Below, piece after piece: positions 29,716-62,460 of a stretch of 64,000 bases of DNA (its first letter is position 1; each line of letters starts with the position of its first letter). The DNA lies in contig DRKX01000089.1 of the NCBI GenBank assembly GCA_011051565.1, positions 4,808 through 68,807 of the forward strand, written 5' to 3'. The stretch comes from Nitrospirota bacterium. GTDB lineage: Bacteria > Nitrospirota > Thermodesulfovibrionia > Thermodesulfovibrionales > JdFR-85. The position numbers and the translations under genes are program-made. The notes beneath the pieces were generated by a model that saw only the letters and a program-made list of their open reading frames with translations, had not been told where the DNA came from and searched no databases.

Positions 29716-30210
29716 ATGACCAAGAGGAGACACAAGCGTTATACAAAACGGGTCGAGACCGAATTCAGCGCTGCAGACAAGGTCTTCAAGGGCATATCAT
29801 CCGACTTCTCGGAGAAGGGGATATTCATAAGGACCAATCACGGCTTCGTCCCCGACACGGTGGTCGAGATAAGTCTGCTGCTGCCCGACGGCACCACGTC
29901 GCGGCTGAAGGGTATTGTGAGGCATACGGTGAAGAGCCAGCTCAAGATGGTGAAGAACGGCATGGGTATTGAGATCATAGAGAGTGACGACGCCTATGCG
30001 AGGTTCCTCCGGGAAGAGCTCATCGGCATGCCGCAGGACGGCCGAGACTCCGCCGGCGCACGTGATCTCCAGACTACACGGACTCCGGACGCTGAAGAAG
30101 AGGAGTACATAGTGAGGGAGTGTCGAGCCTGCGGGACGAAGAACAGGATCGCCGCCTCTAAGCTCTCCCTCGGGCCGAAGTGCGGCAGATGTGGAAGCTC
30201 CTTGACCTGA
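29716..30210 (+). CDS. PilZ-domain protein with C-terminal CxxC-x17-CxxC zinc ribbon
   Basis: The start codon directly follows the purA stop. The canonical c-di-GMP motifs are RRHKR (RxxxR) and DFSEKG (DxSxxG). The C-terminal zinc ribbon is CRACGTKNRIAASKLSLGPKCGRCG. Confidence 0.75.
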   Translation: MTKRRHKRYTKRVETEFSAADKVFKGISSDFSEKGIFIRTNHGFVPDTVVEISLLLPDGTTSRLKGIVRHTVKSQLKMVKNGMGIEIIESDDAYARFLREELIGMPQDGRDSAGARDLQTTRTPDAEEEEYIVRECRACGTKNRIAASKLSLGPKCGRCGSSLT

Positions 30211-34346: not shown

Positions 34347-34376
34347 TTGACGAAAGAAGAGACAACCCTGTAAAAT
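34347..34376 (+). promoter_or_regulatory. Dedicated promoter of tRNA-Sec
   Basis: TTGACG (34347-34352), an 18-nt spacer, then TAAAAT (34371-34376). The first nucleotide of the tRNA lies 8 nt downstream of the -10. Confidence 0.55.
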
Positions 34377-34383: not shown

Positions 34384-34481
34384 GGGAGCGGATGGGGCTC
34401 TGGTGTCCCCCTCGGACTTCAAATCCGGTGTTCCCTGCCAAAAGCGGGGAAGGTGGGTTCGATTCCCACACGCTCCCGCCA
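34384..34481 (+). tRNA. selC: tRNA-Sec (anticodon UCA), CCA encoded
   Basis: The 98-nt sequence is GGGAGCGG...CGCTCCCGCCA. The anticodon loop CUUCAAA carries UCA. The long variable arm has an 8-bp stem (TTCCCTGC / GCGGGGAA) with loop CAAAA. The T arm is GTGGG-TTCGATT-CCCAC (5 bp). The acceptor stem is extended, the discriminator is G, and the 3' end is CCA. Confidence 0.9.
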
Positions 34482-34799: not shown

Positions 34800-37280
34800 A
34801 TGCCGTCTATCAACCAGTCGAATCCTTCAGCCGGCCGGCCGTACGCGCCGGATGTCCGTGTATTTGCGCTCGACGGCCTGCCCCACGGGATGCCTCTGTC
34901 GGAGATGCCGTCCGGATGCACGGAGCATCAGATCGTGGTCGTGGGCAGGGACATGAAGGTGAGGTATCTCAATCATGCCGCAAGGGCCGCTGCAGGCATC
35001 AAGGAGGGAGACACCGGAACCTACTTCTGCTATCAAGTCACCCATCGCAGGGACACGCCGTGCGATGCAGGCGGTGAGATATGCCCGGTGAAAGAGGTCT
35101 TCAGGACGGGCAGGCCCCTCACCGTGCACCACGAGTACTTCGACGGCGAGAGAAAAGGTTCCCTTCTCGAGGTCTACGCATTTCCCATATTCAGCGAAGA
35201 CGGCGAGGTCCTGGAGGTCACGGAGTTCATCAAGGAGGTGACCAAGAGGGACTTGTCCGAGAGGACACTGCTGTCCGAGGAGCGGTTCCGCAACCTCGTG
35301 GAGTCGACTCCGGATGCGATCATCACGGCCGATTCGAACGGGATAATCGTCTCGTGCAACAGCGCCGTCAATAACATCTTCGGCTACTCCCCGGCGGAAC
35401 TGATGGACAGGCCCGTGACCGTCATCATACCGGAGAGGTTTCATGAGAAACATTCAGAGGGGATGAGGCTGGTGCGTGACGGCCGAAAGCCGATACTTGC
35501 CGGAGAGACGATGGAACTGGTTGCCCTCAAGAAGGACGGGACGGAATTCCCCGTCGAACTCTCGCTCTCTTTATGGGCATCAAAGGGGGAGGTGTACTTC
35601 ACCGCCATCATAAGGGATATCACCATGCGCAAGAACGTCGAGGCGTCGCTTATAGAGGAGAAGCAGCGTCTCGAGTCGGTCCAGAGAGAACTCGTGAAAA
35701 AGCACGAAGAACAGGGCGTCCTATTCAGACAGGTGGAGGTTGCCAAGAAGGAGTGGGAGCGTACGGCTGACTGCCTCGACGACATGATCATACTCGCCGA
35801 CAGCGAGGGCAGGATAAGGAGGTGCAACAAGAGTGTCAGGGAGTTCTCCGGACTCTCGTATGATGAACTCATCGGAAGGAAATGGGAGGACCTGCTGAGT
35901 GAGCAGGGGGTCGAGGCATACAAGCTCTACCGCCACAGCGTGGAACTGAGACACAAGTCCACAGGCAGGCATTTCGTCCTGAGGTTCTATCCTTTCAAGG
36001 CCCTGAACAGTTATGAGAGCCCGGGCATCGTCATAACCATTCACGACCTGACGGAGCTCAAAAATGCTGCAGAGGTGCTCGAGAAAAAGAACAGGGAGAT
36101 AGACGAAAACCGGCGGAAGCTCCAGACCGCCCTTGATGAGATATCCTACCTGATCCAGAGGGTTACGCACGAGAAGGACTTCAGCATCAGGTTCGCCAAC
36201 CCCCACCTGAAGAGATGCAGCAAGGAGATGAACTGTACCGAGGAAGACTGCCCGTGTCATGGAGAAGCGGCCGCGCGGTGCTGGCAGGTGGTGGGCTCGC
36301 AATGCGGCGGTGACGCCAAGGGATACTTCGCGAAGCAACACGGGGACTGTTCGCGCTGTCCCGTGTTCAAAAGCGCCACGACGGACCCCATATACCAGAT
36401 CGGCGAGCACTTCAACAACATGATGCACATACTCGAGTTGCAGAACAGGGAACTCGAGACCGCATACACAGAGCTCAAGGCAACACAGACGAAGATCCTC
36501 CAGCAGGAAAAGATGGCGTCCATCGGACAGCTTGCAGCAGGCGTTGCACACGAGATCAACAACCCCATAGGCTTTATATCGAGCAACCTCGGTACTCTCG
36601 ACAAGTACGTCAGCAAACTCACGGAGTTCATCGATGCCCAGGCGGAAATCATCGCCGCCCTCGGCTCGGAGGAGTTCGAGAGGATTCTCGGTGAAAGGCG
36701 GCGGAAGCTCAAGCTCGACTACGTCATACCGGACATAAGGGCGCTCATCGAGGAATCGCTCGACGGCGCCGACAGGGTGAGGAAGATAGTCCAGGACCTC
36801 AAGAGTTTCTCCCGTGTCGACGAGGCCGAGTACAAGCATGCGGACATAAACGAGTGCATCGAGAGCACCATAAACATAGTCTGGAACGAACTCAAGTACA
36901 AGGCGGAGCTGAAGAAGGACTATGGAGAACTGCCCCTCACGAAGTGTTTCCCCCAGCAGCTGAACCAGGTCTTCATGAACCTCCTTGTCAATGCAGCGCA
37001 TGCCATAGAGAAGCAGGGCGAGATAACCGTGAGGACGAGCCATCAGGACGGTTCCATTTTCGTTGAGATATCGGACACCGGTGTCGGGATTCCCGAGGAG
37101 AACCTCGGCAGGATATTCGATCCGTTCTTCACGACTAAGGAGATAGGCAAGGGCACCGGTTTGGGCCTGAGCATAACCTACGACATCGTGAAGAAGCACA
37201 ACGGCGAGATCACTGTCCATAGCGAGGTGGGTGAGGGGACGACGTTTACTGTGAGAATCCCCGTGATGGATGGAAGGTGA
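34800..37280 (+). CDS. Cytoplasmic multi-PAS sensor histidine kinase with a Cys-rich module (HK1)
   Basis: There are three PAS-like segments and coiled coils. A Cys-rich block lies at aa 472-523. The HisKA H-box is [21 protein letters not shown]. HATPase_c shows [16 protein letters not shown] and GTGLGLS. The RBS GGAGGGGG lies 7 nt before ATG 34800. Confidence 0.85.
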
Positions 37281-37286: not shown

Positions 37287-38111
37287 ATGGATACGGGTGT
37301 GAGGATACTCTGCGTGGACGACGAAAGGAACGTCCTCAGGGCCATAGAGAGGCTCTTCCTCGACGACGACTACGAGATCATCACCGCTGCATCCGGCGAC
37401 GAGGGGCTTGATGTGCTGAGAGAGGTCTCACCCGTCCAGATCGTTTTGTCAGACTACAGGATGCCGGGGATGAACGGCGTCGATTTTCTCAAGGAGGTCT
37501 GCGAGCACTGGCCCGAGACGGTCAGGATCGTGCTCTCCGGTTATGCGGACACCGCGGCCGTGGTGTCCGCAATAAACGAGGGCCGTATATACAAGTTCAT
37601 ACCGAAGCCCTGGAACGACGACGAGCTCAAGGTCACGATATCCAATGCCATAGAGCGCTACATGCTGCACGAGAGGAACGCGGAACTCGCCAGGGAACTT
37701 CAGAAGAAGAACGAGGAGCTCCAGAAGGTGAACGACAACCTCGAGAGGCTCGTTGCGGAGAGGACCTCGGAGCTGATCTTTCAGAACAGGGCGTTGACCC
37801 ATTCTCAGAACATCCTCGACGCGCTTCCGGTCGCCGTGCTCGGCATAGATTCAGACGGACTGATAGTCCAGTGCAACGAGAAGGGCGTGGAGATGTTCGG
37901 AAGCGGCGGCGCTACGATACTCGGCATGGACAGGACGGCCGTGCTCTCCGAGGAGCTGAACGGCATGATAGACGGCGCCGTCAGGGACGGGCTTCAAACC
38001 GGTGACTTCCGCATCGGGGGGGTATCGATGGTCAGATTTGCGTCCATGAGGTATCCGGACGGGCAGGAGGGAGTGGTTCTGATCTTTTTTGGCGAGGGTG
38101 ATCATGCCTGA
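37287..38111 (+). CDS. Response regulator: REC + coiled coil + PAS-like domain, no enzymatic output
   Basis: REC motifs are ILCVDDERNV, LSDYRMPGMNG and KPWNDDEL. The C-terminal PAS-like segment reads ILDALPVAVLGIDSDGLIVQCNEKGVEMFG. Confidence 0.8.
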   Translation: MDTGVRILCVDDERNVLRAIERLFLDDDYEIITAASGDEGLDVLREVSPVQIVLSDYRMPGMNGVDFLKEVCEHWPETVRIVLSGYADTAAVVSAINEGRIYKFIPKPWNDDELKVTISNAIERYMLHERNAELARELQKKNEELQKVNDNLERLVAERTSELIFQNRALTHSQNILDALPVAVLGIDSDGLIVQCNEKGVEMFGSGGATILGMDRTAVLSEELNGMIDGAVRDGLQTGDFRIGGVSMVRFASMRYPDGQEGVVLIFFGEGDHA

Positions 38112-39099
38112 CACGGTGCTGCTCGTAGATGACGAGGAGTATGTCCTCAACTCGATAGAGCGGCTGCTCGTCTGCTGTGACGGCATCAGGGTGCTGAAGG
38201 CCGCTTCTGCAGACGAGGCCCTCGGTCTCATTGCTGAGGAGGCAGTGGCCGTGATCGTATCCGACAACATGATGCCCGGCATGAAGGGCATAGAGCTCCT
38301 CACGAGGGTCAGGGGGATATCTCCCGACACGGTGAGGATACTCCTTACCGCCTATGCCGACTTTCCGACGGCCATGGAGGCGATAAACAGCGGAGAGGTC
38401 TTCAGGTTCATCGTCAAGCCCTGGGACGACGACCTCCTGGTCAGGACCGTGCAGGAGGCCGCCGGCCGCCACCATATCATCCGCTCCCTCAGGGTGAAGG
38501 ACAAGGCCATACTGCTTTCGCTCGCCCAGACGATTGAGCTCAAGGACCCCTACACGAGGGGACACTGCGAGAGGGTTGCGGCCTATGCCCTCATGATAGC
38601 GGAAGCCCTCGGCCTCCCCGAGGCCTCGAAGAAAGACATAAAATACGGCAGCTGGCTTCACGACTGCGGTAAGGTGGGCGTTCCGGAGCAGATACTCAAC
38701 AACAGCTGTGGTATCGACGAGGAGGACTTCGAGGTCATAAAGCGACATCCAGTCTGGGGGGCTGACGTGGCGCGGCAGGCCCAGATGTCAGAGGTGATCG
38801 TGAATATCATACTCTACCACCACGAGAAGTTCAACGGCACGGGCTATCCGTCCGCGATCGAGGGGGAGAGCATCCCTGTAGAGGCAAGGATAGTGGCCGT
38901 AGCCGACGTCTTCGACGCCCTGACGACCGACAGGCCTTACAGGGCCGGGCTCAGCGAGGAGGAGGCGGTCGAGATAATCGCATCCTTGAGGGGTGAGAGC
39001 CTCGATCCCGAGATAGTCAACGTCTTTCTCTCGGAGCTGAAGCGCCGTTCCGGAGGGGATCGGCTGGTTAAGGAGGCAGGTCTGCATGAACAGCACTGA
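38104..39099 (+). CDS. Response regulator with HD-GYP c-di-GMP phosphodiesterase domain (RpfG-like) 1
   Basis: REC motifs are VLLVDDEEYV, VSDNMMPGMKG and KPWDDDLL. HD-GYP motifs are HDCGKVGVP and HHEKFNGTGYP. ATG 38104 overlaps the previous stop by 8 nt. Confidence 0.85.
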   Translation: MPDTVLLVDDEEYVLNSIERLLVCCDGIRVLKAASADEALGLIAEEAVAVIVSDNMMPGMKGIELLTRVRGISPDTVRILLTAYADFPTAMEAINSGEVFRFIVKPWDDDLLVRTVQEAAGRHHIIRSLRVKDKAILLSLAQTIELKDPYTRGHCERVAAYALMIAEALGLPEASKKDIKYGSWLHDCGKVGVPEQILNNSCGIDEEDFEVIKRHPVWGADVARQAQMSEVIVNIILYHHEKFNGTGYPSAIEGESIPVEARIVAVADVFDALTTDRPYRAGLSEEEAVEIIASLRGESLDPEIVNVFLSELKRRSGGDRLVKEAGLHEQH

Positions 39100-40405
39100 G
39101 ACAGTCACGGCCGTGAAGATACTGGTGGTCGACGACGAGGAGAACATACTCCGGGCGATAAGCAGGTTGCTGATGGACGAAGACCTCGACGTCCTGACCG
39201 CCACATCCGGCGAGGAGGCGTTGAGGATACTCGGATCCAACCGGGACGTGGGAGTCATCGTCTCGGACCAGCGCATGCCCGGTCTCACCGGCGTGGACTT
39301 CCTGGAGAAGGCGAGGAGGATCACCCCTGACACTATAAGGATCATGCTGACCGGGTACGCCGACGTGAACGCTGCCGTGGACGCTATAAACAGGGGCGGG
39401 GCGTACAGGTACGTGGCCAAGCCGTGGAAGGACGAAGAGCTCGTGCAGATCATAAGGGAGGCGGCGCAGAGGTTCTTCCTGACCAGGGAGAACAAGCGGC
39501 TGTCGGAGATGCTCAAGAAGAAGAACGAGGAACTAAGGGACTGGAACTCAAAGCTCGAGCTCTACGTGCAGGAGCAGACCAAGGAGATACAGAAGAACAA
39601 CGAGGAACTGCAGTCGCTGAACGAGCGGCTGAGGAAGAATTTCCAGAACTCGATCATAGCATTCTCGGGCCTCATAGAACTGCGTGACAGTGCGGTCAGG
39701 AACCACTCGAGGAACGTCGCCGAGGTCTCGAGAAAGGCGGCGGAGTCTTTGGGGTTGCCGGCCAGGGAGGTCGACACGATCACCATTGCGTCGCTCCTTC
39801 ATGATATCGGCAAGATCGGCATACCGGACGTCCTTCTCCGCAAGGGACTCGGAGACATGAGCCCCGAGGAACTCAAGGAGTACAGGCTCCACCCCGTAAG
39901 GGGGCAGGCCGCCATCGACTCCATAGAGGACCTGAGAGAGGCCGGTACACTCATAAGGCATCACCACGAATCATACGACGGAAGCGGGTTCCCGGACGGG
40001 CTCAAGGGGAGCGGGATACCCGTAGGTTCGCGGATCATCGGCATGGTGGACGCTGTGGACAAGGCCATGGGCAGCCTCTTGAGCGACAGCGCCGTGCAGG
40101 CGGCGCTGAAGGGCGTCAAGGATGCGCTGGGCAGGAGGTTCGCCCCCGGTCTGTACAAGCATGTCAGGGCCGCGGTCGAGGATACGTACTCGAAGGTCGT
40201 GGTCGAGACGGCCGTGGTCGAGCTCGAGCTGCATCCCGACAACCTCGAGGCGGGCATGGTCATCTCTCGTGACGTCTACAGCGGCACGGGCCTGCTGCTG
40301 CTCAGCAAGGGGCTGCAGCTCAACGAGAAGAACATACAGGCGATCAGGCGTTACTACCGGATCGATCCATCCAGGAGCGGTGTCTTCGTGATGGTGAAGA
40401 GGTAG
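39086..40405 (+). CDS. Response regulator with HD-GYP-type domain 2 (GFP variant) and a C-terminal extension
   Basis: REC motifs are ILVVDDEENI, VSDQRMPGLTG and KPWKDEEL. A coiled coil follows. HD-domain motifs are HDIGKIGIPD and HHESYDGSGFPDGL. A tail of about 70 aa follows. It overlaps the previous gene by 14 nt, with RBS AAGGAGG. Confidence 0.85.
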   Translation: MNSTETVTAVKILVVDDEENILRAISRLLMDEDLDVLTATSGEEALRILGSNRDVGVIVSDQRMPGLTGVDFLEKARRITPDTIRIMLTGYADVNAAVDAINRGGAYRYVAKPWKDEELVQIIREAAQRFFLTRENKRLSEMLKKKNEELRDWNSKLELYVQEQTKEIQKNNEELQSLNERLRKNFQNSIIAFSGLIELRDSAVRNHSRNVAEVSRKAAESLGLPAREVDTITIASLLHDIGKIGIPDVLLRKGLGDMSPEELKEYRLHPVRGQAAIDSIEDLREAGTLIRHHHESYDGSGFPDGLKGSGIPVGSRIIGMVDAVDKAMGSLLSDSAVQAALKGVKDALGRRFAPGLYKHVRAAVEDTYSKVVVETAVVELELHPDNLEAGMVISRDVYSGTGLLLLSKGLQLNEKNIQAIRRYYRIDPSRSGVFVMVKR

Positions 40406-40408
40406 TCC

Positions 40409-41068
40409 ATGATCGAGTTCGACAGGGAAGAGAAGAGGATGGTGCTGAAACTCGTATTCTACGGGCCGGCCCTTTCGGGCAAGACGACCAATCTCCTGAG
40501 GCTTCACGACCTCCTTGCACGCGAGGGCCGGGGGGAGTTGATGGTGCTCGATACGAGGGACGACAGGACGATCTTCTTCGATCTCCTCCCGTTCTTTCTC
40601 GTCACCCCGGGGGGACTGAAGATAAAGTTGAAGGTCTATACGGTTCCGGGCCAGGTGAAACACGATGCAACGAGGAAGGCCGTACTGCAGAGGGCGGACG
40701 GAGTGGCCTTCATCGCTGACTCCCGGCTGTCGGAGACGGCTAACAATTATTCGAGCTTCGAGAACCTCGAAAAGAACCTCGCCTTTGTCGGGATCGACAT
40801 CGAGACCGTCCCCCTCGTGATCCAGTTCAACAAGAGGGACCTCAGCGAGATCGTCCCCGAGACCGACATAGAACGCCTGTGGCGGCCCACGGGCATACCC
40901 GTCTTCATGGCCTCGGCCCTTCAGGGCTGGGGAGTAGTGGAGACCTTCGGCAGACTGGTGGAACTCACCTACGACGCCGTAGACAGAAAATGGGGCCTGC
41001 GCGAAGGATACGGACTCGAGAGGGAGGAGTTCGTTCGGCGGCTGACTCTGAGGGAGCAGGGTCGGTGA
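40409..41068 (+). CDS. MglA-type small Ras-like GTPase
   Basis: The P-loop is GPALSGKT. Switch II is TVPGQ, with Thr in place of the canonical Asp of DxxG, which is the MglA hallmark. G4 is NKRD. The start lies 3 nt after the previous stop. Confidence 0.8.
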   Translation: MIEFDREEKRMVLKLVFYGPALSGKTTNLLRLHDLLAREGRGELMVLDTRDDRTIFFDLLPFFLVTPGGLKIKLKVYTVPGQVKHDATRKAVLQRADGVAFIADSRLSETANNYSSFENLEKNLAFVGIDIETVPLVIQFNKRDLSEIVPETDIERLWRPTGIPVFMASALQGWGVVETFGRLVELTYDAVDRKWGLREGYGLEREEFVRRLTLREQGR

Positions 41069-41104
41069 GTGGACGTTCCCGGCTGCAGGAAAGGGGATGC
41101 TCGA

Positions 41105-42421
41105 ATGAATGAAGACCGTGAGGGTGCGGGCGGTATCGAGTACGTGGTCGGGGCCGAGAAGAGACTCTGCGAGATTCTCGGGGATGAAGAGATAATGCCG
41201 ATCCTGAGGAGTGCACTCCGCGCTGGGGTGTCGAGGATCGAGGTGAGGGACTCCAAGGGCAGGGTGCTCTGGGCCTGCGGTGATCCCACTGGCGGGGGAG
41301 GCCGTGCAAGGGAGGTCGCACCGCTCTGTCTCGAGGGCGAGCCTGCCGGCAGCATCATGGTCGAGATTCCCTCAAGCGGGCGACTGCGTCTCCGTGACTT
41401 CACAGGCCTGCTGAGCGAAGTGATGAACACGATGATAACCAACAACCTGAAGAGGATGCTGACGGCCGAGATACACACCACCGTGGTCGACCAGACCCAC
41501 GAGGAACTGATCGAGACGAACAGGAGGCTGCGCGCGTCCGAGTCGAGGTACCGAGAGCTCGCAGAGAGCCTCGACAGGAAGGTCCAGGAGCGTACGGAGG
41601 AGCTGAAGAGGATTCACACGAGGCTCATCCAGCAGGAGAAGGCCGCATCCATAGGGCTGCTGGCAGCGGGTGTGGCACACGAGATAAACACCCCACTCGG
41701 GTTCATATCGAGCAATCTCAACACCCTGAAGAGATACATGTCGAGATTCACCGAGATGCTGGACTTCTACCGCCGCATAGTCGGGGAGGCCGGCGACGGT
41801 GTCGCCGAGGAGGCCGCCAAGAAGTGGAGCGATCTCAAGCTCGGCTTCGTGGTAAGAGACGTCGGAGAGCTGATCAGCCAGAGCCTCGACGGAGCCGAGA
41901 GGGTGAGGAGGATCGTCGCGGACCTCAAGGGGTTTTCCCATGTCGATGACAGCAAGGAAGACGTCGTCGACCTTAACACGGAGATAGAGAGGACCTTCAG
42001 CGTGCTCGCCCACGAGATACCCGAAGACGCCGAGATCGAGAGGGACTACGGGTCGTTGCCTGGTTTTCTCTGCGATCCGGCCCTCGTCTGCCAGGTCTTC
42101 CTCAACATCATACTGAACTCCCTGCAGGCGAAGAAAGGGGGACTCAAGCTGCACGTGAGCACGAGGTTCGCCGGCGGAGACATAACGGTTGCGTTCACGG
42201 ACAACGGGCCCGGCATCCCCGATGACATCAGAGGGAGGATATTCGAGCCGTTCTTCACCACGAAGGACGTCGGCGAGGGTACGGGGCTTGGCCTGACCGT
42301 CACACGTGACATAGTGACCGCCTACGGCGGTGACATCGAGGTCGAAAGCCGGCCGGGTGCCGGCACGACCTTTCTCGTAAGGCTTCCGGCCGAGGGGGGG
42401 CGGGATGTCGAGGTACGCTGA
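41105..42421 (+). CDS. Cytoplasmic histidine kinase (HK2) with an uncharacterised ~130-aa N-terminal domain
   Basis: The H-box is [21 protein letters not shown], paralogous to HK1. HATPase_c shows NIILNSLQA, DNGPGI and GTGLGLT. ATG 41105 has RBS AAAGGGGA 7 nt upstream. GTG 41069 is the alternative start. Confidence 0.8.
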   Translation: MNEDREGAGGIEYVVGAEKRLCEILGDEEIMPILRSALRAGVSRIEVRDSKGRVLWACGDPTGGGGRAREVAPLCLEGEPAGSIMVEIPSSGRLRLRDFTGLLSEVMNTMITNNLKRMLTAEIHTTVVDQTHEELIETNRRLRASESRYRELAESLDRKVQERTEELKRIHTRLIQQEKAASIGLLAAGVAHEINTPLGFISSNLNTLKRYMSRFTEMLDFYRRIVGEAGDGVAEEAAKKWSDLKLGFVVRDVGELISQSLDGAERVRRIVADLKGFSHVDDSKEDVVDLNTEIERTFSVLAHEIPEDAEIERDYGSLPGFLCDPALVCQVFLNIILNSLQAKKGGLKLHVSTRFAGGDITVAFTDNGPGIPDDIRGRIFEPFFTTKDVGEGTGLGLTVTRDIVTAYGGDIEVESRPGAGTTFLVRLPAEGGRDVEVR

Positions 42422-44816
42422 GCTCTTCAGGTCCATAACCCCGGGTGCGACCGCCGCGGTCGAGTCTCTGCAGGAGGGCGGAGGCCCCGCCGAGCCGTTC
42501 ACGCTCCTCTTTCTCGACGACGAGCATGAAGTGCTCAACGCCCTGAAGAGGATATTCATAGATGAGAACTACCGGATACTCACGGCCGCATCCGTTGGCG
42601 AGGCCTTGGATTTGATGGAGCACGAGAGGGTCCACCTCGTCATATCCGACTACAGGATGCCGAAGGTGACCGGCGCCGAGTTCCTCAGGGAGGTGAAGCA
42701 GAGGTGGCCTGATACGATCAGGATAATGCTCACGGGACATGCGGACATACAGTCCATAATGGGGGCGGTGAACGACGGGGCGGTCTACAAGTTCATAACG
42801 AAGCCGTGGAACGACGAGGACCTGAGGCTCACCGTCAGTCTTGCGCTCCAGCAGTACGTGCTCATACAGGAGAACCGGAAGCTAAAGGAACTGACGAGGG
42901 AGCAGCAGCGCAGGATCAGGAACTACTCCGCCCACTTCAACGAAAACCGCGGGATCATGGGTGATATACTCGTCAAGTCGGGGACGATAAGCAGGGCCGA
43001 CCTGGATACGGCCTTGAAGGAGAAGGGGGATCAGGAATTCCTGGGCGAGACACTCGTGAGGCTCGGCCTGACCACTGAATCGAAGATAGTGAGGGCACTG
43101 CAGGAGCACCTGAACCTCGATTACATAGACCTGAGGGAGGTGAACCTGAGCCCGGCCGTAGTGGGCTTCCTGCCGCGTGACCTCTGCGAGAGGAACAGGC
43201 TGATCCCGGTGAAGGTGGCGGACAAGCAGATCACGATAGCCATGGCCGATCCATCCGATATATTCAAGTGCGACAACATAGCCCTGATGACCGGTCTCAA
43301 GGTGGTGCCGCTCGTTGCAAAGAGCTCGGACATCATGTTCCACTTGGGGAGGGCATACGACGGCTCCTCTGAGGCTGCCTTTGAAATGGACGGTATCTCA
43401 GCCATAGAGCCTCTCGATGAGATCGACATCATAATTGAGGAAGAGGATCCGGAGTTCAACGTGCAGGAGCTGATAGGCTCATCAGAGGTGCCGCCGGTCA
43501 TAAGGATTGTGAATGCGATAATCTCCGAGGCGATCCGCTACAAGGCGAGTGACATACACGTGGAGCCCAAGACGAAGTATTCCGTGATACGCTACCGGAT
43601 AGACGGCATGCTCCACAACAAGATCAAGATACCCTCCGACCTCCATCCCGCGACCATATCGAGGATAAAGATACTCGCCAAGATGGACATCGCCGAGAGG
43701 CGCAAGCCCCAGGACGGCCGGATAACGGTCAAGTCAGGCACGAGGATCGTGGACATAAGGGTCTCCACGATGCCGACCATCAACGGCGAGAAGGTGGTCA
43801 TGAGGATACTCGACAAGAATGCAGCCATCAAGCGGCTGAACGAACTCGGCGTCTCGCCCGCCGACCTCGACAAGCTCTATGCCCTTATCAAGAAGCCCCA
43901 GGGCATAATCATCTCCACTGGCCCCACAGGCAGCGGGAAGACGACGATGCTCTACTCCATACTGAACGAGATGCTCCAGAGCACGAAGAACTTCGAGACC
44001 ATCGAGGACCCTGTGGAGTATTTTCTCGAGGAGGCGAGCCAGGTCTATGTGAGGGAGAAGATAGGGCTCTCCTTTGCCTCTGTACTGCGGGCCACCCTGA
44101 GGCAGGACCCCGACGTCATCCTCGTCGGAGAGATACGTGACCACGAGACCGCCGACGTGGCGTTCAAGGCCGCCCTGACAGGTCACATGGTGCTGACGAC
44201 CCTCCATACGAACAATTCTGTGGCTTCAGTGACGCGGCTTATAGACATGGGCGTCAAACCCTACCTCATAGCTTCTGCCCTCGAGGGCATACTCGCGCAG
44301 AGGCTCGTCCGGAAGGTCTGCAGGTACTGCAGGAGGGAGGCCCCGCCGGACAGGGATTTGATGAGGCTGCTCAAGATACCTCCGGACTCCCTCGGTGACA
44401 GGACGTTCAGGGGGACCGGATGCGAGAGGTGCAATCACACGGGTTATCTCGGGAGGACCGGGATATTCGAGGTCTTCATCATGAACGACGACTTCAGGCA
44501 CTTCATTAGCAGTGCGTACAAGGAGGCGGAACTCCTGAACATGGCCCGCTCAGCGGGGATGAAGACCCTCATGGAAGACGGCATAGACAAGGTGAGGCAG
44601 GGAGAGACCACGCTCGATGAACTGCTTAGGGTGATAGGAACACAGACGAGACACGAACGCACGTGCGAGGAGTGCGGGAGGCTGATCGATGCAAAGTTCC
44701 TGTTCTGTCCCTACTGCGGCAGCTTCAAGCAGAACTTCTGCAGACAGTGCCGGATGCCCCTCGAGGACGACTGGCGGTTGTGCCCGTTCTGCGGCGGCGG
44801 CAGGGTCGGCCGGTGA
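42405..44816 (+). CDS. REC - T2SSE_N/MshEN-like - PilB/GspE-family hexameric ATPase - double zinc ribbon fusion protein
   Basis: REC spans about aa 33-150 (LLFLDDEHEV, ISDYRMPKVTG, KPWNDEDL). The N-terminal GspE domain carries two 24-aa MshEN-like repeats. Walker A is GPTGSGKTT. Walker B and the Asp/His boxes are DPDVILVGEIRD and TGHMVLTTLHTN. The canonical tetra-Cys motif is CRYC...CERC. An extra C-terminal segment reads CEECG..CPYCG..CRQC..CPFCG. It overlaps HK2 by 17 nt. Confidence 0.85.
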   Translation: MSRYAELFRSITPGATAAVESLQEGGGPAEPFTLLFLDDEHEVLNALKRIFIDENYRILTAASVGEALDLMEHERVHLVISDYRMPKVTGAEFLREVKQRWPDTIRIMLTGHADIQSIMGAVNDGAVYKFITKPWNDEDLRLTVSLALQQYVLIQENRKLKELTREQQRRIRNYSAHFNENRGIMGDILVKSGTISRADLDTALKEKGDQEFLGETLVRLGLTTESKIVRALQEHLNLDYIDLREVNLSPAVVGFLPRDLCERNRLIPVKVADKQITIAMADPSDIFKCDNIALMTGLKVVPLVAKSSDIMFHLGRAYDGSSEAAFEMDGISAIEPLDEIDIIIEEEDPEFNVQELIGSSEVPPVIRIVNAIISEAIRYKASDIHVEPKTKYSVIRYRIDGMLHNKIKIPSDLHPATISRIKILAKMDIAERRKPQDGRITVKSGTRIVDIRVSTMPTINGEKVVMRILDKNAAIKRLNELGVSPADLDKLYALIKKPQGIIISTGPTGSGKTTMLYSILNEMLQSTKNFETIEDPVEYFLEEASQVYVREKIGLSFASVLRATLRQDPDVILVGEIRDHETADVAFKAALTGHMVLTTLHTNNSVASVTRLIDMGVKPYLIASALEGILAQRLVRKVCRYCRREAPPDRDLMRLLKIPPDSLGDRTFRGTGCERCNHTGYLGRTGIFEVFIMNDDFRHFISSAYKEAELLNMARSAGMKTLMEDGIDKVRQGETTLDELLRVIGTQTRHERTCEECGRLIDAKFLFCPYCGSFKQNFCRQCRMPLEDDWRLCPFCGGGRVGR

Positions 44817-44873
44817 ATACATCCTGGACAAGGGGGGCTTATGTATCCAAAACAACTCAAGGAGGACGGTTTA

Positions 44874-45431
44874 ATGGAAGACTGCATACTCCTGGTGGAT
44901 GACGAACCCAACATCATATCTTCACTCAAGAGGGTCCTCATGGACGAGCAATACACTATATTCTCGGCCAACAGCGGAGCCGAGGCCCTCGATATCCTGA
45001 AGGAACAGAGGATAAAGGTGGTGATCTCCGACGAGCGCATGCCGGGCATGTCAGGGGCTGAGTTCCTCTCGATCGTGAGGAACCGGTTTCCCGGGGTCGT
45101 CAGGATCGTCCTGACGGGTCATGCGAGCATAGAGGCTGCCATGAGTGCGGTCAACAACGGGGAGATATACAGGTTCTTCACAAAGCCTTGGAACGATGTG
45201 GAACTGAAGCTCTCGATACGCTCGGCCGTCGAGAAACACGACCTCGAGGCAGAGAACAGGAGGCTCCTCAGCATAGTGAGGACCCAGGCGCTCGAGCTGA
45301 AGCTGCTCGAGAAGCGATATCCGAACATCACGAAGATCGAGCGCGACGACGACGGAAACCTGATCCTGCCCGACATCTCGGACGAGGATCTCTCCGCGAT
45401 CGTCGCCCAGTGTGAGAGGGAGTTTACATGA
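44874..45431 (+). CDS. Stand-alone response regulator (REC plus a ~70-aa C-terminal helix-rich tail)
   Basis: The start MEDCILLVDDEPNI has RBS AAGGAGGA 7 nt upstream. ATG 44841 is the alternative. REC motifs are ISDERMPGMSG and KPWNDVEL. Confidence 0.8.
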   Translation: MEDCILLVDDEPNIISSLKRVLMDEQYTIFSANSGAEALDILKEQRIKVVISDERMPGMSGAEFLSIVRNRFPGVVRIVLTGHASIEAAMSAVNNGEIYRFFTKPWNDVELKLSIRSAVEKHDLEAENRRLLSIVRTQALELKLLEKRYPNITKIERDDDGNLILPDISDEDLSAIVAQCEREFT

Positions 45432-46291
45432 GCAAGAGCCGCAACATAGAGACGTTCGTTTCAGGGGTGAAGGACCTGCCGACCCTTCCCTCCGTCGTGC
45501 TCAAGGTCAACCAGGCACTGATGGACAGCTCGGCGACCATCGACTCGGTCAGCAGCATAGTCGAGAGGGACCCGGCCCTTACAGCCAAGGTGCTCAGGTT
45601 GGCCAACTCGAGCTACTACGGGTTTTCCTCCTCCGTGGACACCCTGTCGAGGGCCGTCACCGTCCTCGGTTTCAACACCATAAGGAGTCTTGCGACCACG
45701 GTCTCCGTCTTCAAGATATTCAAGAGGGAGCCGTCGGGCTCCTTCGACATGCATGGCCTGTGGCTTCACAGCCTCGGCTGTGCGATCGCCTCGAAGGTCC
45801 TCGTCCACGCGATGGGGACTGCACTTCGAGAGAAGGCCTTCGTTTGCGGCCTGATACACGACATAGGAAAGGTCGTCATCGCGCAGAACCTTCCTGACGA
45901 GACGGCGGAGGTCCTGAGGCGCCTCGAGGATGACGGTTCCCCGGACATGGCTGAGGTGGAAGAGGAGGTCATAGGGTTCGCCCACACCGGTGTGGGTGCG
46001 CTCATAGCCGAGAGGTGGCATTTCCCGAGGGAGCTCTCCGAGGCCATCAGGCTTCACCACAGGTCCGGAGACGATCCGGACGAGGCGCATCCGGTCTTGA
46101 CGTATGCCGTGTATGCCGGAAACCAGATTGCAAAGGAGCGCGGGCTCGGCAGGAGCCAGAACAGGAAGGTCCGTGAGGTCCAGGCGTGGGTGCGGGAGAG
46201 GCTGGGCGTGTCTGTGGAGGATCTGCCGGGGCTGCTTGAGAGGACCGAGTATGACTTCAACACTGTGGTGAACTCGTGGGACCTCGCTTGA
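45428..46291 (+). CDS. HDOD-domain protein
   Basis: It has an ATGA overlap with the previous gene. Motifs are LPTLPSVVLKVNQAL, LANSSYYGF and GLIHDIGKVVI, typical of HDOD. Confidence 0.8.
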   Translation: MSKSRNIETFVSGVKDLPTLPSVVLKVNQALMDSSATIDSVSSIVERDPALTAKVLRLANSSYYGFSSSVDTLSRAVTVLGFNTIRSLATTVSVFKIFKREPSGSFDMHGLWLHSLGCAIASKVLVHAMGTALREKAFVCGLIHDIGKVVIAQNLPDETAEVLRRLEDDGSPDMAEVEEEVIGFAHTGVGALIAERWHFPRELSEAIRLHHRSGDDPDEAHPVLTYAVYAGNQIAKERGLGRSQNRKVREVQAWVRERLGVSVEDLPGLLERTEYDFNTVVNSWDLA

Positions 46292-48247: not shown

Positions 48248-49141
48248 ATGAAGATCGAGTTCACAAAGATGCACGGTCTCGGAAACGACTTTGTCGTGAT
48301 AGACACGCTCAGGGAGTCGTCACTGGCCGGGCTGGATACGGATGAACTGTCGAGTCTCGCGGCACATCTGTGCAACAGGAGGCTCGGCATAGGTGCGGAT
48401 CAGCTTCTTCTGCTCTGCCAGTCGCACGAGGCTGATTTCAGGATGAGGATCTTCAATGCCGACGGCTCTGAGGTCGAGATGTGCGGCAACGGCATCCGCT
48501 GTCTTGCCAGGTACATCTGGGAGAGGGGGCTGAGCGACAAGGCGGTCCTCGACATCGAGACCCTTGCCGGCATAATCCGGCCCGAGGCACGAGGAGAGAT
48601 GGTGAGGGTCGACATGGGAATGCCGGAGTTCTCGCCGGAGAAGATACCGGTGGACATACGCGAGTCGGACCGCACTGTCCTTCCGGAGACGGCGGTCTTC
48701 CTGGATTACCCTCTCGAGATAGAGGGGCGAGTCTTCGATGTCACCTGCCTCTCGATGGGCAACCCTCACTGCGTGACGGTCATAGATGAGGTGGAGACCT
48801 TTCCCGTGAGTTACTACGGGCCCCTGATCGAGAACCACCGGATGTTTCCCGCCCGCACGAACGTGGAGTTCATAGAGATACTCAACGACAGGGAGATCAG
48901 GATGAGGGTCTGGGAGAGGGGCGCCGGCGAGACTATGGCCTGCGGGACCGGGGCCTCTGCGGCTGCCGTGGCGGCGTCGCTTAAGGGGTCGACGGGAAGG
49001 GACGTCACGGTCCGCCTGCTCGGCGGAGACCTCACCATCGAATGGGCGGAGGACGGACACGTGTACATGACCGGTCCGGCAGTGACCGTCTTCGACGGGG
49101 TCATCGACACGGAGATATTAGTGGGGGAAGAGATATGTTAG
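48248..49141 (+). CDS. dapF: Diaminopimelate epimerase
   Basis: Motifs are FTKMHGLGNDFVVID and the catalytic Cys contexts EMCGNG and MACGTG. Confidence 0.95.
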   Translation: MKIEFTKMHGLGNDFVVIDTLRESSLAGLDTDELSSLAAHLCNRRLGIGADQLLLLCQSHEADFRMRIFNADGSEVEMCGNGIRCLARYIWERGLSDKAVLDIETLAGIIRPEARGEMVRVDMGMPEFSPEKIPVDIRESDRTVLPETAVFLDYPLEIEGRVFDVTCLSMGNPHCVTVIDEVETFPVSYYGPLIENHRMFPARTNVEFIEILNDREIRMRVWERGAGETMACGTGASAAAVAASLKGSTGRDVTVRLLGGDLTIEWAEDGHVYMTGPAVTVFDGVIDTEILVGEEIC

Positions 49142-49434
49142 AGGAGAAGAGGCGTGTTTCGAGACAGGCTACCCGCCTGAACATCAGGTTTGCGGTGACC
49201 GAGGTGGGCGGCAGGGATGCCACGCGGGTCGAGGCCGACGGCTCGATCGTCGACATATCGGAGCAGGGCTTCTGCATGATAACGACCTATCCCTTGCAGA
49301 AGGGGCATGCAATAACCATAAGGGACAGGGGAGACGATAAGATGCCGGCCTACGGGCTTGTAAGGTGGACGGAGAAGGAGGGCTCCACGTACAGGGCCGG
49401 CCTTTATCACAGTCATCCGGCGAGCGGCATTTGA
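49135..49434 (+). CDS. Single-domain PilZ protein
   Basis: The 99-aa product carries RRVSR (RxxxR) and DISEQG (DxSxxG). ATG 49135 overlaps the dapF stop (ATGTTAG). Confidence 0.7.
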   Translation: MLEEKRRVSRQATRLNIRFAVTEVGGRDATRVEADGSIVDISEQGFCMITTYPLQKGHAITIRDRGDDKMPAYGLVRWTEKEGSTYRAGLYHSHPASGI

Positions 49435-51008: not shown

Positions 51009-52037
<1,029 letters not shown>

Positions 52038-52044
52038 TGTTGAG

Positions 52045-52824
52045 ATGAGGAACAGACGGGTTGTCTTGCTTTTCCTTGTCGTTGTCGTATCCGCCTCCCT
52101 TATGACTTTTCAGAGCACGAGGGGACCGTTCAAGCCGCTGAGTGCTCTTCAGACCCCGCTGTACCGGCTGGAGAAGACCTTTGCCGCAATCCTGAAGATC
52201 ATCAAGTCGCCTTTCCTGTACTATTTCAAGCTGGAGAACGAGAACCGCCTGCTCAGGGAGGAACTCGTCCGGATGAAGATGAAAGAGCAGGAGTACAGCG
52301 AACTCAAGATCGAGAACGAGAGGCTGAGGACCATACTGAAGATCAGGGAGGCGGAGCCGCGATTCGTGTCGGCTGCGCGTGTCATATCCTCAGGGATAAG
52401 GCAGTGGCCTGAGCTTATGATCATCGACAAGGGGGCGGCGAGCGGCATCCGGAAGGACATGGCCGTGAGGACGCCAGACGGACTGGTGGGAAAGACCACA
52501 GAGGTCATGCCGGGGTTCTCCAAGGTCCTGCTCGTGACGGACGTGAGTTTCTCCGTATCCGTGAGACTCCAGGATTCGAGGATAGAGGGAGTGCTCTCGG
52601 GCAGGGGGGATGGTTCGTGCGTGTTGAAGTACATCCCGAGGGATGAAGTGGTCGAGCCCGGGACACTGCTGATCACCTCTGGGCTCGACGGGGTCTTCCC
52701 GAAGGGGATTCCCGTGGGGTACATAACCGGGGTGAAGAAGGGAAGCGAGCTCTTCCTCGATGTCGAGGTCGAACCGATAATAAGGGCGTCCATGATCGAA
52801 GAGGTCATGGTCTTCAAGAAATAG
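52045..52824 (+). CDS. mreC: Rod-shape-determining protein MreC
   Basis: It has an N-terminal TM helix, a coiled coil (LENENRLLREELVRMK) and a beta domain (VVEPGTLLITSGLDGVFPKGIPVG). It sits directly after mreB. Confidence 0.85.
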   Translation: MRNRRVVLLFLVVVVSASLMTFQSTRGPFKPLSALQTPLYRLEKTFAAILKIIKSPFLYYFKLENENRLLREELVRMKMKEQEYSELKIENERLRTILKIREAEPRFVSAARVISSGIRQWPELMIIDKGAASGIRKDMAVRTPDGLVGKTTEVMPGFSKVLLVTDVSFSVSVRLQDSRIEGVLSGRGDGSCVLKYIPRDEVVEPGTLLITSGLDGVFPKGIPVGYITGVKKGSELFLDVEVEPIIRASMIEEVMVFKK

Positions 52825-52835
52825 GACCCGGGCGG

Positions 52836-53297
52836 ATGAACGTGACCATGAAGAAGGCGGCCCTCTGGAGCGTGATCGGTGTAGGCGTGTTCCTGCTACA
52901 GTCCGTGATCTCGGTAGGGCCGATGAAGCTGAATCTGACGCTGCTTCTCGTCTATTACGCAGGCCTCAGGAGGGGCGAGCTGGCGGGTGTTGCAATCGGA
53001 ATACCCGTGGGCTTCCTCGAGGACGCCCTGTCAGGAGGCTTGATCGGTCCCGGTATGCTCGGAAAGGGGCTCGTGGGCATACTGCCTGCGTATCTCTCCG
53101 AGGGCTTCTTCATATGGACGCCGATCCTCGGGATGCTTGCAGTCTTCACGCTCACCGTCATCGACGAGACCGTGGTATACACGTCGTTAGCCCTCTTTTC
53201 ACAGAGGCCTGCGCCTGTCCTGGACTTCCTGGCCCTCACCCTGCTGAAGGCATCCATCAACGCCCCATTCGGGTGGCTCTTGAGGACAGGGAAATGA
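52836..53297 (+). CDS. mreD: Rod-shape-determining protein MreD
   Basis: A small polytopic membrane protein in the conserved mreBCD position. It has an ATGA overlap with mrdA. Confidence 0.7.
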   Translation: MNVTMKKAALWSVIGVGVFLLQSVISVGPMKLNLTLLLVYYAGLRRGELAGVAIGIPVGFLEDALSGGLIGPGMLGKGLVGILPAYLSEGFFIWTPILGMLAVFTLTVIDETVVYTSLALFSQRPAPVLDFLALTLLKASINAPFGWLLRTGK

Positions 53298-55072
53298 GAG
53301 ACAAGAGGAAGACGATAACGGTCCTGACTTACATCACAATAGCGGTCTTCGTCGTCTTCCTTCTCAGGCTCTGGCAGCTCCAGATACTGAAGGGCGGTTA
53401 CTACAGGAAGCTGTCCGAGAAGAACAGGGTCAGGGTCTTCAAGATTCCTGCGCCGAGGGGCATAATATACGACAGAAACGGCATACCCCTCGTGAAGAAC
53501 GCCCCGTATTTCATAGCCTCGTTGATCCCGGACCTCTCCAAGGAGGGACTCGACCTCGAAGGCCTCGCGCGGCTCCTGGACATGCCGGTCGATGAGCTGT
53601 CGAAGAAGATAGCGAAACAGAAGAGGCACGTGCTCGAGCCCATAAGGCTGAAAGAGGGGCTGGACTTCGCAGAGGTCGCCAGGATTGAGGCGAGGAGGTC
53701 GGACTTTCCGGGCCTCGTGGTGGAGACCGAGATAACGAGGGCATACCCTTACGGCAGCACCGGGGCGCACCTGATAGGATACCTGAGCCTGCCCACCGAG
53801 GCACAGTTGCGCAAGGGGCTCTTTGCCGGAGTTCCAAAGGGGACCTTCGTAGGGCAGTGGGGTGTCGAGGCCCTCTACGACAAGAGGCTGAGGGGGGTCC
53901 CTGGAAAGAGGTTCATCGAGGTCGACGCACTCGGAAGGCAGTTGCGCACTCTCAGGGTGGTTCCCCCGCGCAAGGGTGAAGACCTGACGCTCAGCGTGGA
54001 CATCCGCACACAGAAGGCCGCAGAGGAGGCGTTCAGGGGAAAGGCGGGTGCGCTCCTGGCACTCGATCCCGATGACGGAGAGGTCCTTGCGCTGGTGAGC
54101 CTGCCCTCATTTGATCCCAACCTCTTCGTGCGCGGTATATCGCCGAGGCAATGGCGCAGGCTGCAGAGACATCCAGGCCATCCCTTTCTGAACAGGGTTT
54201 TCCAGAGCCAGTACCCCCCGGGATCGATTTTCAAGATAGTCACTGCCATAGCAGCCCTCGAGGAGGGGGTCGTGGACGAGAACTTCTCGGTGGAGTGCAC
54301 GGGAGCGATCAACGTGGGGATCTGGAAGTTCAGCTGCTGGAAGGGACAGGGCCATGGAACGACGGCGCTCAGAAAGGCCCTCGTCGAGTCCTGCGACGTC
54401 TACTTCTACGAGGTGGGCAGGCTCCTCGGCATGGACAGGATTGCCAAGTATGCAAACGCACTGGGGTTGGGAACCGCCCCCGGAGTCAACCTGAGTGCGG
54501 AGAAGGAGGGGCTCATACCGACTACGTCGTGGAAGCTGAGGAAGAAGGGGATTCCCTGGTACCTCGGAGAGACCTTCAATGCAGCGATAGGCCAGGGGTA
54601 CGTCTCCGTCACCCCTGCCCAGGCAGCCCTCATGATATCCGCCCTTGCAAACGGCGGCACCGTCTACAGGCCGGAGCTTCTCAAGGTCTCTTCCGGCACT
54701 GAACCCATGACAAAGCTCAGCCTCAGCCGGAGAACGCTCCGGCTGATCAGGGACTCACTCGTCGGTGTGGTCGATGACCCAAAGGGCACGGGGGGAGATG
54801 CGAAGTCGGAGATCGTGAGGATCGCCGGCAAGACCGGTACGGCACAGGTGGTAAAGATACCCGAATCGGTGAAGAGGAAGCTCGCAAGAAAATACAAGGA
54901 TCATGCGTGGTTCGTTGCTTACGCGCCGGCCGCGAATCCCATGATAGCTCTCTCGGTGTTCGTCGAGCACGGAGGACACGGAGGAGAGACCGCCGGTCCC
55001 ATTGCAAAGGCGACCATCGAGGCGTACATGAGGTCTTCAGGATACCATGCTGAAAGACAGGCTGAAAATTAG
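53294..55072 (+). CDS. mrdA: Penicillin-binding protein 2 (elongasome transpeptidase)
   Basis: The start is MRDKRKTITVLTYITIAVFVV. Motifs are PRGIIYDRNG, the SxxK motif GSIFKIVTA, and KTGTAQV. The track ORF extends upstream to 53114, inside mreD. Confidence 0.9.
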   Translation: MRDKRKTITVLTYITIAVFVVFLLRLWQLQILKGGYYRKLSEKNRVRVFKIPAPRGIIYDRNGIPLVKNAPYFIASLIPDLSKEGLDLEGLARLLDMPVDELSKKIAKQKRHVLEPIRLKEGLDFAEVARIEARRSDFPGLVVETEITRAYPYGSTGAHLIGYLSLPTEAQLRKGLFAGVPKGTFVGQWGVEALYDKRLRGVPGKRFIEVDALGRQLRTLRVVPPRKGEDLTLSVDIRTQKAAEEAFRGKAGALLALDPDDGEVLALVSLPSFDPNLFVRGISPRQWRRLQRHPGHPFLNRVFQSQYPPGSIFKIVTAIAALEEGVVDENFSVECTGAINVGIWKFSCWKGQGHGTTALRKALVESCDVYFYEVGRLLGMDRIAKYANALGLGTAPGVNLSAEKEGLIPTTSWKLRKKGIPWYLGETFNAAIGQGYVSVTPAQAALMISALANGGTVYRPELLKVSSGTEPMTKLSLSRRTLRLIRDSLVGVVDDPKGTGGDAKSEIVRIAGKTGTAQVVKIPESVKRKLARKYKDHAWFVAYAPAANPMIALSVFVEHGGHGGETAGPIAKATIEAYMRSSGYHAERQAEN

Positions 55073-59775: not shown

Positions 59776-59868
59776 ACGGGTTATTATACCTCTTTTTGCA
59801 GCGGATACGTATTCGATCGCAACCTGCCGAAACCAGAGTCCGCTGCTCGGGCGGAACGGCGTTTTCTG

Positions 59869-62414: not shown

Positions 62415-62460
62415 CCCGTTCGTGGGGATGCGCCGGAGCAAGGGGGGAGGCTTGATTTTC

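Follow-up and report, generated by a model that had tools for sequence, protein, structure and literature searches.

How does a Ras-like GTPase of the MglA type operate where no MglB is encoded beside it, and is its nucleotide state read or reset by the histidine kinase whose gene follows? The question is raised by a 64,000-nt stretch of DNA from a Nitrospirota bacterium (assembly GCA_011051565.1, contig DRKX01000089.1, positions 4,808 to 68,807; the window), which carries a nine-gene signalling operon on its + strand. The operon encodes, in order, a histidine kinase (HK1), a REC-PAS protein, two REC-HD-GYP proteins, the GTPase as gene five, a second histidine kinase (HK2), a REC-MshEN-T2SSE ATPase, a stand-alone REC (receiver) protein, and an HDOD protein, with gene junctions that range from a 23-nt overlap to a 36-nt gap. 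What is known of bacterial Ras-like GTPases comes mostly from the Myxococcus MglA/MglB polarity switch, and less from the actinobacterial conservon. A sequence-only reading of the window had proposed a functional link between the GTPase and HK2. Related loci strengthen this link considerably: the two genes co-occur nearly without exception in both directions, they are frequently translationally coupled, and the N-terminal domain of HK2 (the N-domain) is exclusive to this kinase. The conserved core is a triad of an orphan Group 1 MglA paralogue, HK2, and a receiver-bearing PilB/GspE-like ATPase. The module is a small GTPase wired to two-component signalling, and it is widespread and uncharacterised.

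One genome per species was scanned for related loci. The 136 tblastn-confirmed matches place the module in at least 80 species-level genomes, among them that of the cultivated Geobacter metallireducens (Gmet_3472-3476), and the best 80 of the 136 were fetched. By record title, the hosts comprise Nitrospirota/Thermodesulfovibrionia, Geobacteraceae, Desulfuromonadales, Desulfobulbia, Syntrophales, Desulfomonilia, and others. In all 74 loci with enough flank, an HK2 with the same N-domain is found 3' of the GTPase, and in 73 of them it is the very next gene; in the Nitrospiraceae metagenome-assembled genome (MAG) L037, the orphan GTPase and HK2 are separated by a REC-HD-GYP gene. Locus L007 is not an exception, as its HK2 gene contains a 100-N assembly gap, and neither are eight more loci, which fell below the per-domain score cut-off yet have a full-length HK2 directly downstream. 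The end of the GTPase gene and the HK2 start share 1-11 nt in about 20 loci, most often as a 4-nt ATGA. G. sulfurreducens strain AP017912 and G. metallireducens GS-15 have the full arrangement too. Three of four very divergent N-domain kinases (29-33% identity) likewise have the GTPase immediately upstream. From the E-values and the directly adjacent gene order, the association of GTPase and HK2 is far beyond chance.

The exclusivity of the N-domain comes from a full HMMER scan of 1.84 billion representatives, in which the domain occurs in just 44 clusters at E <= 1e-3. These are essentially all 400-470-aa kinases that carry the domain N-terminally, or short fragments, and one weak match (E 7e-4) in a 1911-aa protein is probably spurious. 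A word-indexed search with the N-domain alone matched four short proteins only; the full HMMER scan and a search with full-length HK2, which gave 120 close orthologues, were used instead.

The ATPase gene follows HK2 in 67 of 68 loci. The sole locus of the 68 without it is L015 (L015:10001-12605, a delta-proteobacterial MAG), where the GTPase-HK2 pair is kept and an HDOD gene replaces the ATPase. At least one REC-HD-GYP gene is located upstream of the GTPase in 61/70 loci, and HK1 is upstream in most related loci, with sensor domains that vary, such as dCache in Geobacter. The triad is preceded by a variable input module, in which a sensor kinase is combined with one or two cyclic-dinucleotide phosphodiesterases of the REC-HD-GYP type. 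The stand-alone REC gene after the ATPase is kept in most related loci, and the HDOD gene occurs in a minority only, L005, L016, L038, and L015 among them.

The GTPase had been read as MglA-type from its P-loop, switch II, and NKRD motifs, and this assignment holds. Its closest PDB sequences are M. xanthus MglA (5ymx_A, E 1.2e-42) and T. thermophilus MglA (3t12_A, E 2.2e-40), the third match is Rab-28 at 7e-4, and the Pfam match is a weak one to Arf/Ras. Similarity places it in the MglA family, far above other Ras-superfamily members. It contains GPALSGKT (aa 19-26), DDRTIFFD (aa 51-58), TVPGQ (aa 78-82), and NKRD (aa 141-144). In the G3 motif, Thr replaces Asp and the catalytic Gln82 is kept, and TVPGQ is invariant in 82 family members. 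DDRTIFFD aligns gap-free to TDRTLFFD of MglA, and the intrinsic Arg finger R53 is invariant across the family. The GTPase has ~40% overall identity to M. xanthus MglA. Its relatives number thousands; the nearest 120, from Nitrospirota MAGs and Geobacter, share 72-100% identity with it. The family is ~70-77% identical across phyla, which is far better conserved than the HK2 N-domain. Forty family-invariant positions differ from both M. xanthus MglA and canonical Nitrospiraceae MglA. The family-specific residues in and around switch 1, the interswitch, and switch 2 are R41, D48, D51, K73, K75, H85, and R95; the basic ones (R41, K73, K75, H85, R95) are found around the interswitch and switch 2. 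A C-terminal extension of ~30 aa is also family-specific.

As far as sequence and gene order indicate, the window GTPase is the orthologue of Gmet_3475, because the G. metallireducens locus (L083) has a 225-aa GTPase on the minus strand with the HD-GYP gene Gmet_3476 directly upstream. Gmet_3475 is listed as 'MglA Group 1, <MglA, 225', an orphan, in Table S2 of PMC4316618, which also holds Geob_3508, GM18_0303, and GM21_2366, and Gmet_3476 is named as an HD-GYP protein in 10.1101/2021.11.05.467447. The window GTPase is hence assigned to Group 1 via the published phylogeny.

That MglA is normally paired with MglB, as was stated earlier, is true of most members: a cognate mglB is located within four genes for 390 of 449 MglA family members, whereas 59 are orphans (PMC4316618), and the present family is among these. 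The reported lack of MglB in the operon is upheld and can be widened to the window. No Robl_LC7 match was obtained with Pfam in the nine operon proteins, 24 small open reading frames (ORFs), and 20 larger ORFs, and jackhmmer with M. xanthus MglB (a query 100% identical to PDB 6h5b_B) found nothing in all six frames of the 64 kb. Within +/-10 kb of the GTPase in the related loci, mglB is absent except in L037, where a canonical mglB (117 aa) and a 195-aa mglA (L037:4059-5155) are located ~5 kb upstream of the orphan-GTPase operon. Canonical mglB is also present in the Geobacter carriers of the orphan paralogue (Gmet_3475, Geob_3508, GM18_0303, GM21_2366), which hold an mglBA pair and an additional longer SofG-like paralogue (PMC4316618 Table S2). 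In G. metallireducens, the canonical mglB is coupled to Gmet_3417. In L037, the mglB gene adjoins the canonical mglA and not the orphan GTPase.

HK2 begins 36 nt after the GTPase stop codon (41066-41068), at ATG 41105, and a Shine-Dalgarno-like run, GGAAAGGGGA, precedes this ATG. The spacing agrees with that given before, and the start agrees with the N-termini of the orthologues; the in-frame GTG at 41069, which had been offered as an alternative, is not needed. The kinase core is complete (HATPase_c 1e-25, HisKA 8e-6) and comprises the H (AHEINTPLGF), N (FLNIILNSLQA), G1 (DNGPGIP), F (FEPFFTTK), and G2 (GTGLGL) boxes. HK2 has no transmembrane segment, and no sensor domain besides the N-domain is detected by Pfam. 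The N-domain is the sole candidate input domain of the kinase. The signalling helix that follows it (NNLKRMLTxExHTxVV...) is conserved much better than the N-domain itself.

The N-terminus of HK2 had been described as lacking any assignable motif, and its first ~115 aa indeed have no Pfam, NCBIfam, or PDB sequence match (best PDB E 0.57), which includes the absence of a Pfam PAS or GAF match. An AlphaFold2 model of residues 16-117 from 87 sequences is confident, with a predicted local distance difference test score (pLDDT) of 90.2 and a predicted TM-score (pTM) of 0.82. The order of its elements is short helix, helix, strand, strand, Gly-rich loop, strand, strand, and long helix, and the long helix continues into the signalling helix and the dimerisation and histidine phosphotransfer (DHp) domain. 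Foldseek against the PDB gives no match below E 1e-3. The top matches are the PAS domain of DosP with a query TM-score (TMq) of 0.64-0.67 (E 6e-3) and the GAF domain of Nlh1 with a TMq of 0.60 (E 1e-2), and GAF fRMsr and DhaR-N are also found. For M. xanthus MglB (6izw_B) the TMq is 0.58 at E 0.14, as it is for the Roadblock domain of an Asgard Rag-like GTPase. The model is thus confident, but its PAS, GAF, and MglB matches are all weak. The modelled fold appears to belong to the broad PAS/GAF/Roadblock-like alpha/beta class, and the N-domain cannot be assigned to a single one of PAS, GAF, and Roadblock.

Roadblock domains have the topology helix1-strand1-strand2-helix2-strand3-strand4-strand5. 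The N-domain model differs from it in a Gly-rich loop between strands 2 and 3 in place of helix 2, and in having four strands, not five. Both MglB monomers contact switch 1 and switch 2 of MglA through helix 2 (PMC6876712). Since the helix that MglB uses to grip MglA is missing, the N-domain as modelled is not a Roadblock domain. An N-domain profile of 83 sequences has an hhalign probability of 0.9% against MglB. Conservation of the N-domain is low, with a median identity of 34%. G16, G82, and E77-G78-E79, which sits at the tip of the hairpin joining strands 3 and 4, are invariant, and E18, P32, L33, and G41 are nearly so. No Arg, Gln, or Asn is invariant, and the invariant polar residues are Glu only. 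Of the earlier suggestion that this region has a Roadblock/LC7- or GAF-like fold, a sensor-type alpha/beta fold is retained by the model, whereas a Roadblock domain in the role of GTPase-activating protein (GAP) is not. The acidic residues E18, E77, and E79 and the family-specific basic residues of the GTPase could be complementary.

The ATPase start overlaps the HK2 stop by 17 nt in the window. The protein scores below both NCBIfam equivalog cut-offs, with 561 against 675.65 for TIGR02538 (PilB) and 558 against 630.25 for TIGR02533 (GspE). Its MshEN domain (aa 183-236) has neither the canonical Arg (RLG) nor the canonical Gln (LxxxLxxQ) in either half-site for cyclic di-GMP (c-di-GMP), the canonical motif being that of PMC5013675. 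All 71 ATPase orthologues likewise lack this Arg and Gln, and have G[IV][LM]G…LKEK and FL[SG]E…LQxH instead. The binding of c-di-GMP by the ATPase is therefore uncertain, and a ligand other than c-di-GMP is possible for its MshEN domain.

The second REC-HD-GYP protein is 53% identical to Gmet_3476 (L083:7925-9235), which has been reported as selective for 3',3'-cGAMP (cyclic GMP-AMP) in a biosensor screen, with an RxxQ selectivity motif. The corresponding motif in the window is KAMG, and the position varies (R, G, N, and others) among 41 orthologues. The protein also has a conserved C-terminal domain of ~100 aa (…GxVLSRDxYSGTGLLLL…IRRYYRxDP) without a Pfam match.

With a probability of about 0.45, a single switch made up of the GTPase and HK2 governs whether the receiver domain of the ATPase is phosphorylated. 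Whether the GTPase carries GTP or GDP would be relayed to HK2 via direct binding to the N-domain and/or the adjacent conserved signalling helix, and this binding would set the balance between the kinase and phosphatase activities of HK2. HK2 would in turn phosphorylate the receiver of the ATPase encoded immediately downstream, and probably the stand-alone REC protein too, and phosphorylation of the ATPase would switch a pilus- or secretion-type motor on or off. Environmental and cyclic-dinucleotide input would be supplied by the upstream kinase and the HD-GYP regulators. The N-domain would serve as a docking or transducer module, and not as an MglB-type GAP. Several features argue for the single switch. 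The GTPase keeps the MglA residues Arg53, Thr78, and Gln82, and HK2 is catalytically complete, soluble, and without another sensor domain. GTPase and HK2 co-occur with overlapping gene ends, and the N-domain is exclusive to HK2. Precedents also exist, as the conservon comprises a GTPase and a kinase, and the N-termini of kinases are proposed partners of the Group 1 Rup GTPases. A more extensive proposal is a Roadblock-free cytoplasmic 'G-protein-coupled two-component system', in which an orphan MglA paralogue binds the HK2 N-domain or signalling helix and its nucleotide state gates phosphorylation of a receiver-fused PilB/GspE-like ATPase. Such a system would be a conserved feature of Nitrospirota and Desulfobacterota-type lineages, linked to the turnover of cyclic dinucleotides, possibly 3',3'-cGAMP; this fuller proposal is tentative and falls short of even odds.

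Several points weigh against direct coupling of the GTPase to the kinase. The GTPase is ~73% identical across phyla and the N-domain only ~34%, a disparity that a tight co-conserved switch interface does not predict. The conservation of the signalling helix could reflect ordinary kinase reasons. The known targets of MglA and SofG are pilus ATPases and polarity factors rather than kinases, and the ATPase is therefore an equally natural target of the GTPase. Synteny shows a shared pathway, but not which partners touch. The fourth of the very divergent HK2-like kinases (P0279) has a REC-GGDEF-EAL gene upstream and no GTPase.

The main alternative is that the GTPase localises or activates the REC-MshEN-PilB/GspE-like ATPase, in the way MglA and SofG serve the pilus motors of Myxococcus, and does not work on the kinase. 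HK2 would then be an independent branch that senses, through its small PAS/GAF-like domain, a metabolite or nucleotide, for example an HD-GYP product, and the genes would travel together for the sake of one pathway. The ATPase is linked as tightly as HK2, and pilus ATPase polarity is what MglA and SofG are known for. Among solved structures, the ligand-sensing PAS and GAF domains come closest to the N-domain fold, and the operon is rich in cyclic-dinucleotide parts (HD-GYP, MshEN, and an orthologue of the reportedly cGAMP-selective Gmet_3476). In contrast, L015 holds the GTPase-HK2 pair without the ATPase, the GTPase is placed beside HK2 in the gene order with ends that often overlap, and the N-domain is a stripped-down four-strand fold that lacks the helices that normally form PAS and GAF ligand pockets. 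This explanation is less likely than the single switch, and it is the best of the alternatives.

Considerably less probable is that a canonical MglB encoded elsewhere serves the orphan paralogue in trans as its GAP, so that no GAP role would be needed for HK2. This is compatible both with the single GTPase-HK2 switch and with the ATPase as the target. The mglBA pairs of the four Geobacter carriers and the canonical genes of L037 would provide such an MglB, and the paralogue keeps the intrinsic Arg finger and the Gln that MglB-type GAPs reposition. On the other hand, the 40 family-invariant differences from canonical MglA include switch 1, interswitch, and switch 2 positions, and MglB co-evolves with the MglA to which it is coupled (PMC4316618). 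It is very improbable that the N-domain descends from a Roadblock domain and, fused to the kinase, takes the place of MglB as the GAP resetting the GTPase: the operon has no other GAP candidate and the TMq to the two Roadblock structures is not much below that to PAS and GAF, but all fold matches are above E 1e-3, the hhalign and Pfam comparisons with MglB and Robl_LC7 are negative, helix 2 is replaced by a loop in a sheet of four strands rather than five, and Glu provides the only invariant polar residues.

Compared to the MglA/MglB module of M. xanthus and T. thermophilus, the window GTPase belongs to the same family, with Thr for Asp in G3, the Arg finger, and the catalytic Gln. The lack of an adjacent mglB is in line with SofG and Bdellovibrio MglA, which are also orphan Group 1 paralogues (PMC4316618), and the link to a PilB-like ATPase echoes the pilus-motor biology of the family. 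In contrast, the GTPase is only ~40% identical to canonical MglA, even though canonical MglA is itself highly conserved across phyla, and it carries the ~30-aa tail. It is also fixed beside a histidine kinase in a two-component and cyclic-dinucleotide operon, and no Frz, RomR/RomX, or PATAN genes are nearby. The MshEN and T2SSE domains, together with the HD-GYP enzymes of the operon, resemble the MshE/PilB/GspE ATPases under c-di-GMP control. The N-terminal receiver, the C-terminal zinc ribbons, the PilB/GspE scores below cut-off, and the MshEN domain without canonical Arg and Gln differentiate the window ATPase from them.

The actinobacterial conservon also pairs an MglA-like GTPase with a histidine kinase (PMC4316618, PMC13343842), and comprises the CvnA kinase, the CvnB Roadblock protein, CvnC (DUF742), and the Group 2 GTPase CvnD. 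It is similar in that a small MglA-family GTPase and a histidine kinase form a signalling unit. It differs in that the operon proteins include neither a Roadblock protein (CvnB) nor CvnC/DUF742, in that HK2 is soluble whereas CvnA is membrane-bound with a HAMP domain, and in that the GTPase is of Group 1 and CvnD of Group 2. Response regulators are abundant here and absent from the conservon, and the phyla are different. For the Group 1 Rup GTPases, the N-terminal regions of kinases have been proposed as in-trans partners (PMC4316618). They share with the window operon a GTPase next to a kinase (or, for Rup, a GGDEF-EAL protein) with an unassigned N-terminal region. In Rup the catalytic Gln is missing and the partner carries an invariant one, whereas here the GTPase keeps the Gln and the N-domain has none that is invariant; coiled-coil and OmpA-type proteins are also missing from the operon. 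Neither the conservon nor Group 1 Rup matches the GTPase-HK2 module in its components.

The neighbourhoods of Group 1 GTPases vary widely, and a kinase link is not mentioned in PMC4316618. No literature was found on the GTPase-HK2-ATPase cluster or its locus tags beyond this 2014 catalogue and the HD-GYP work on Gmet_3476. The GTPase family was thus already catalogued in 2014 as an orphan Group 1 MglA (Gmet_3475), without its kinase link being noted. For the regulation and targets of orphan MglA paralogues, the module offers a defined and testable wiring, from GTPase to dedicated kinase to receiver-fused motor ATPase. If the GTPase does gate the kinase, this would be a second, independently evolved coupling of a small G protein to a phosphorelay, without a Roadblock partner. 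It would also tie small-GTPase signalling to the cyclic-dinucleotide control of pilus- or secretion-type motors in metal- and sulfate-reducing bacteria.

Table 1. Genes of the signalling operon and the N-domain of HK2, in window positions.
Feature	Positions	Strand	Evidence
HK1, soluble multi-PAS histidine kinase, Cys-rich insert; operon gene one	34800..37280	+	Pfam PAS_4/PAS_9/HisKA/HATPase_c
Response regulator, REC and PAS-like C-terminal part	37287..38111	+	Pfam Response_reg 2e-21, PAS 2.5e-6; 6 nt 3' of HK1
REC-HD-GYP phosphodiesterase, canonical HHE...GYP and RPYR motifs	38089..39099	+	Pfam HD_5 1e-35, Response_reg; alignment
Second REC-HD-GYP protein with extra conserved C-terminal domain	39086..40405	+	Pfam; orthologue of G. 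metallireducens Gmet_3476
Orphan MglA-family (Group 1) small GTPase, 219 aa	40409..41068	+	PDB MglA match, motifs
HK2, soluble class I histidine kinase; private N-domain, signalling helix (aa 113-142), DHp, catalytic domain	41105..42421	+	Pfam HisKA, HATPase_c; boxes
HK2 N-domain (aa 16-117); helix, four-strand antiparallel sheet, helix	41150..41455	+	AlphaFold2, Foldseek, conservation
REC-MshEN-T2SSE (PilB/GspE-like) ATPase with C-terminal double zinc ribbon	42405..44816	+	Pfam T2SSE 1.7e-131, Response_reg, MshEN, DZR
Stand-alone REC response regulator with ~70 aa C-terminal extension	44841..45431	+	Pfam Response_reg 2e-23
HDOD-domain protein, last operon gene in the window	45428..46291	+	Pfam HDOD 3e-65

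The Cys-rich insert that separates the PAS region of HK1 from its kinase core (nt 36216-36362, aa 473-520) has 8 Cys in 48 residues, and a possible role for it is that of a redox sensor binding a metal or Fe-S. In the 560-nt gap upstream of the operon, no GEMM or cGAMP riboswitch was detected, and tRNA-Sec is the sole Rfam match at the gathering threshold; riboswitch control of the operon was rejected on this ground. The tRNA-Sec gene (34384-34477, Rfam 74 bits) is located just 5' of the operon and is preceded by a promoter-like site at 34347-34376. A gene for selenocysteine synthase, selA, is also present in the window (8226-9617).

Pfam scans of the ORFs detected no structural genes for pili or secretion in the 64 kb window, and the surroundings of the operon are housekeeping genes. 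Downstream of the operon, at a distance of ~5 kb, there is a cluster of mreB, mreC, PBP2, and rodA (51009-56177), and G. sulfurreducens (L001) likewise has mreB ~5 kb away from its operon. In Myxococcus, MreB is a binding partner of MglA. The proximity here looks like a coincidence, with mreB within 10 kb in just 1 of 80 related loci. Two small PilZ-domain proteins are encoded at 29716-30210 and 49042-49434, one with PilZ and a zinc ribbon (E 9e-11) and the other with a weak PilZ match (E 1.6e-4); they are possible c-di-GMP receptors.

Positions 2187-5022 contain a trio of cdaA (cyclic di-AMP, c-di-AMP, synthase with a DAC domain), a ybbR-like gene, and a glmM-like gene of the phosphoglucosamine mutase family, which is the usual arrangement of a c-di-AMP operon. 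A 178-aa ORF on the - strand (7361-7897) has a gene-like GC content at third codon positions (GC3, 0.79) and one N-terminal hydrophobic segment, and is without a Pfam match. At the far end of the window (56329-63999), genes of glucan metabolism encode a 1148-aa alpha-glucan water dikinase-like protein, a GH57 and DUF3536 protein, and a 4-alpha-glucanotransferase. The presence of the water-dikinase homologue is unusual for a bacterium of this type.

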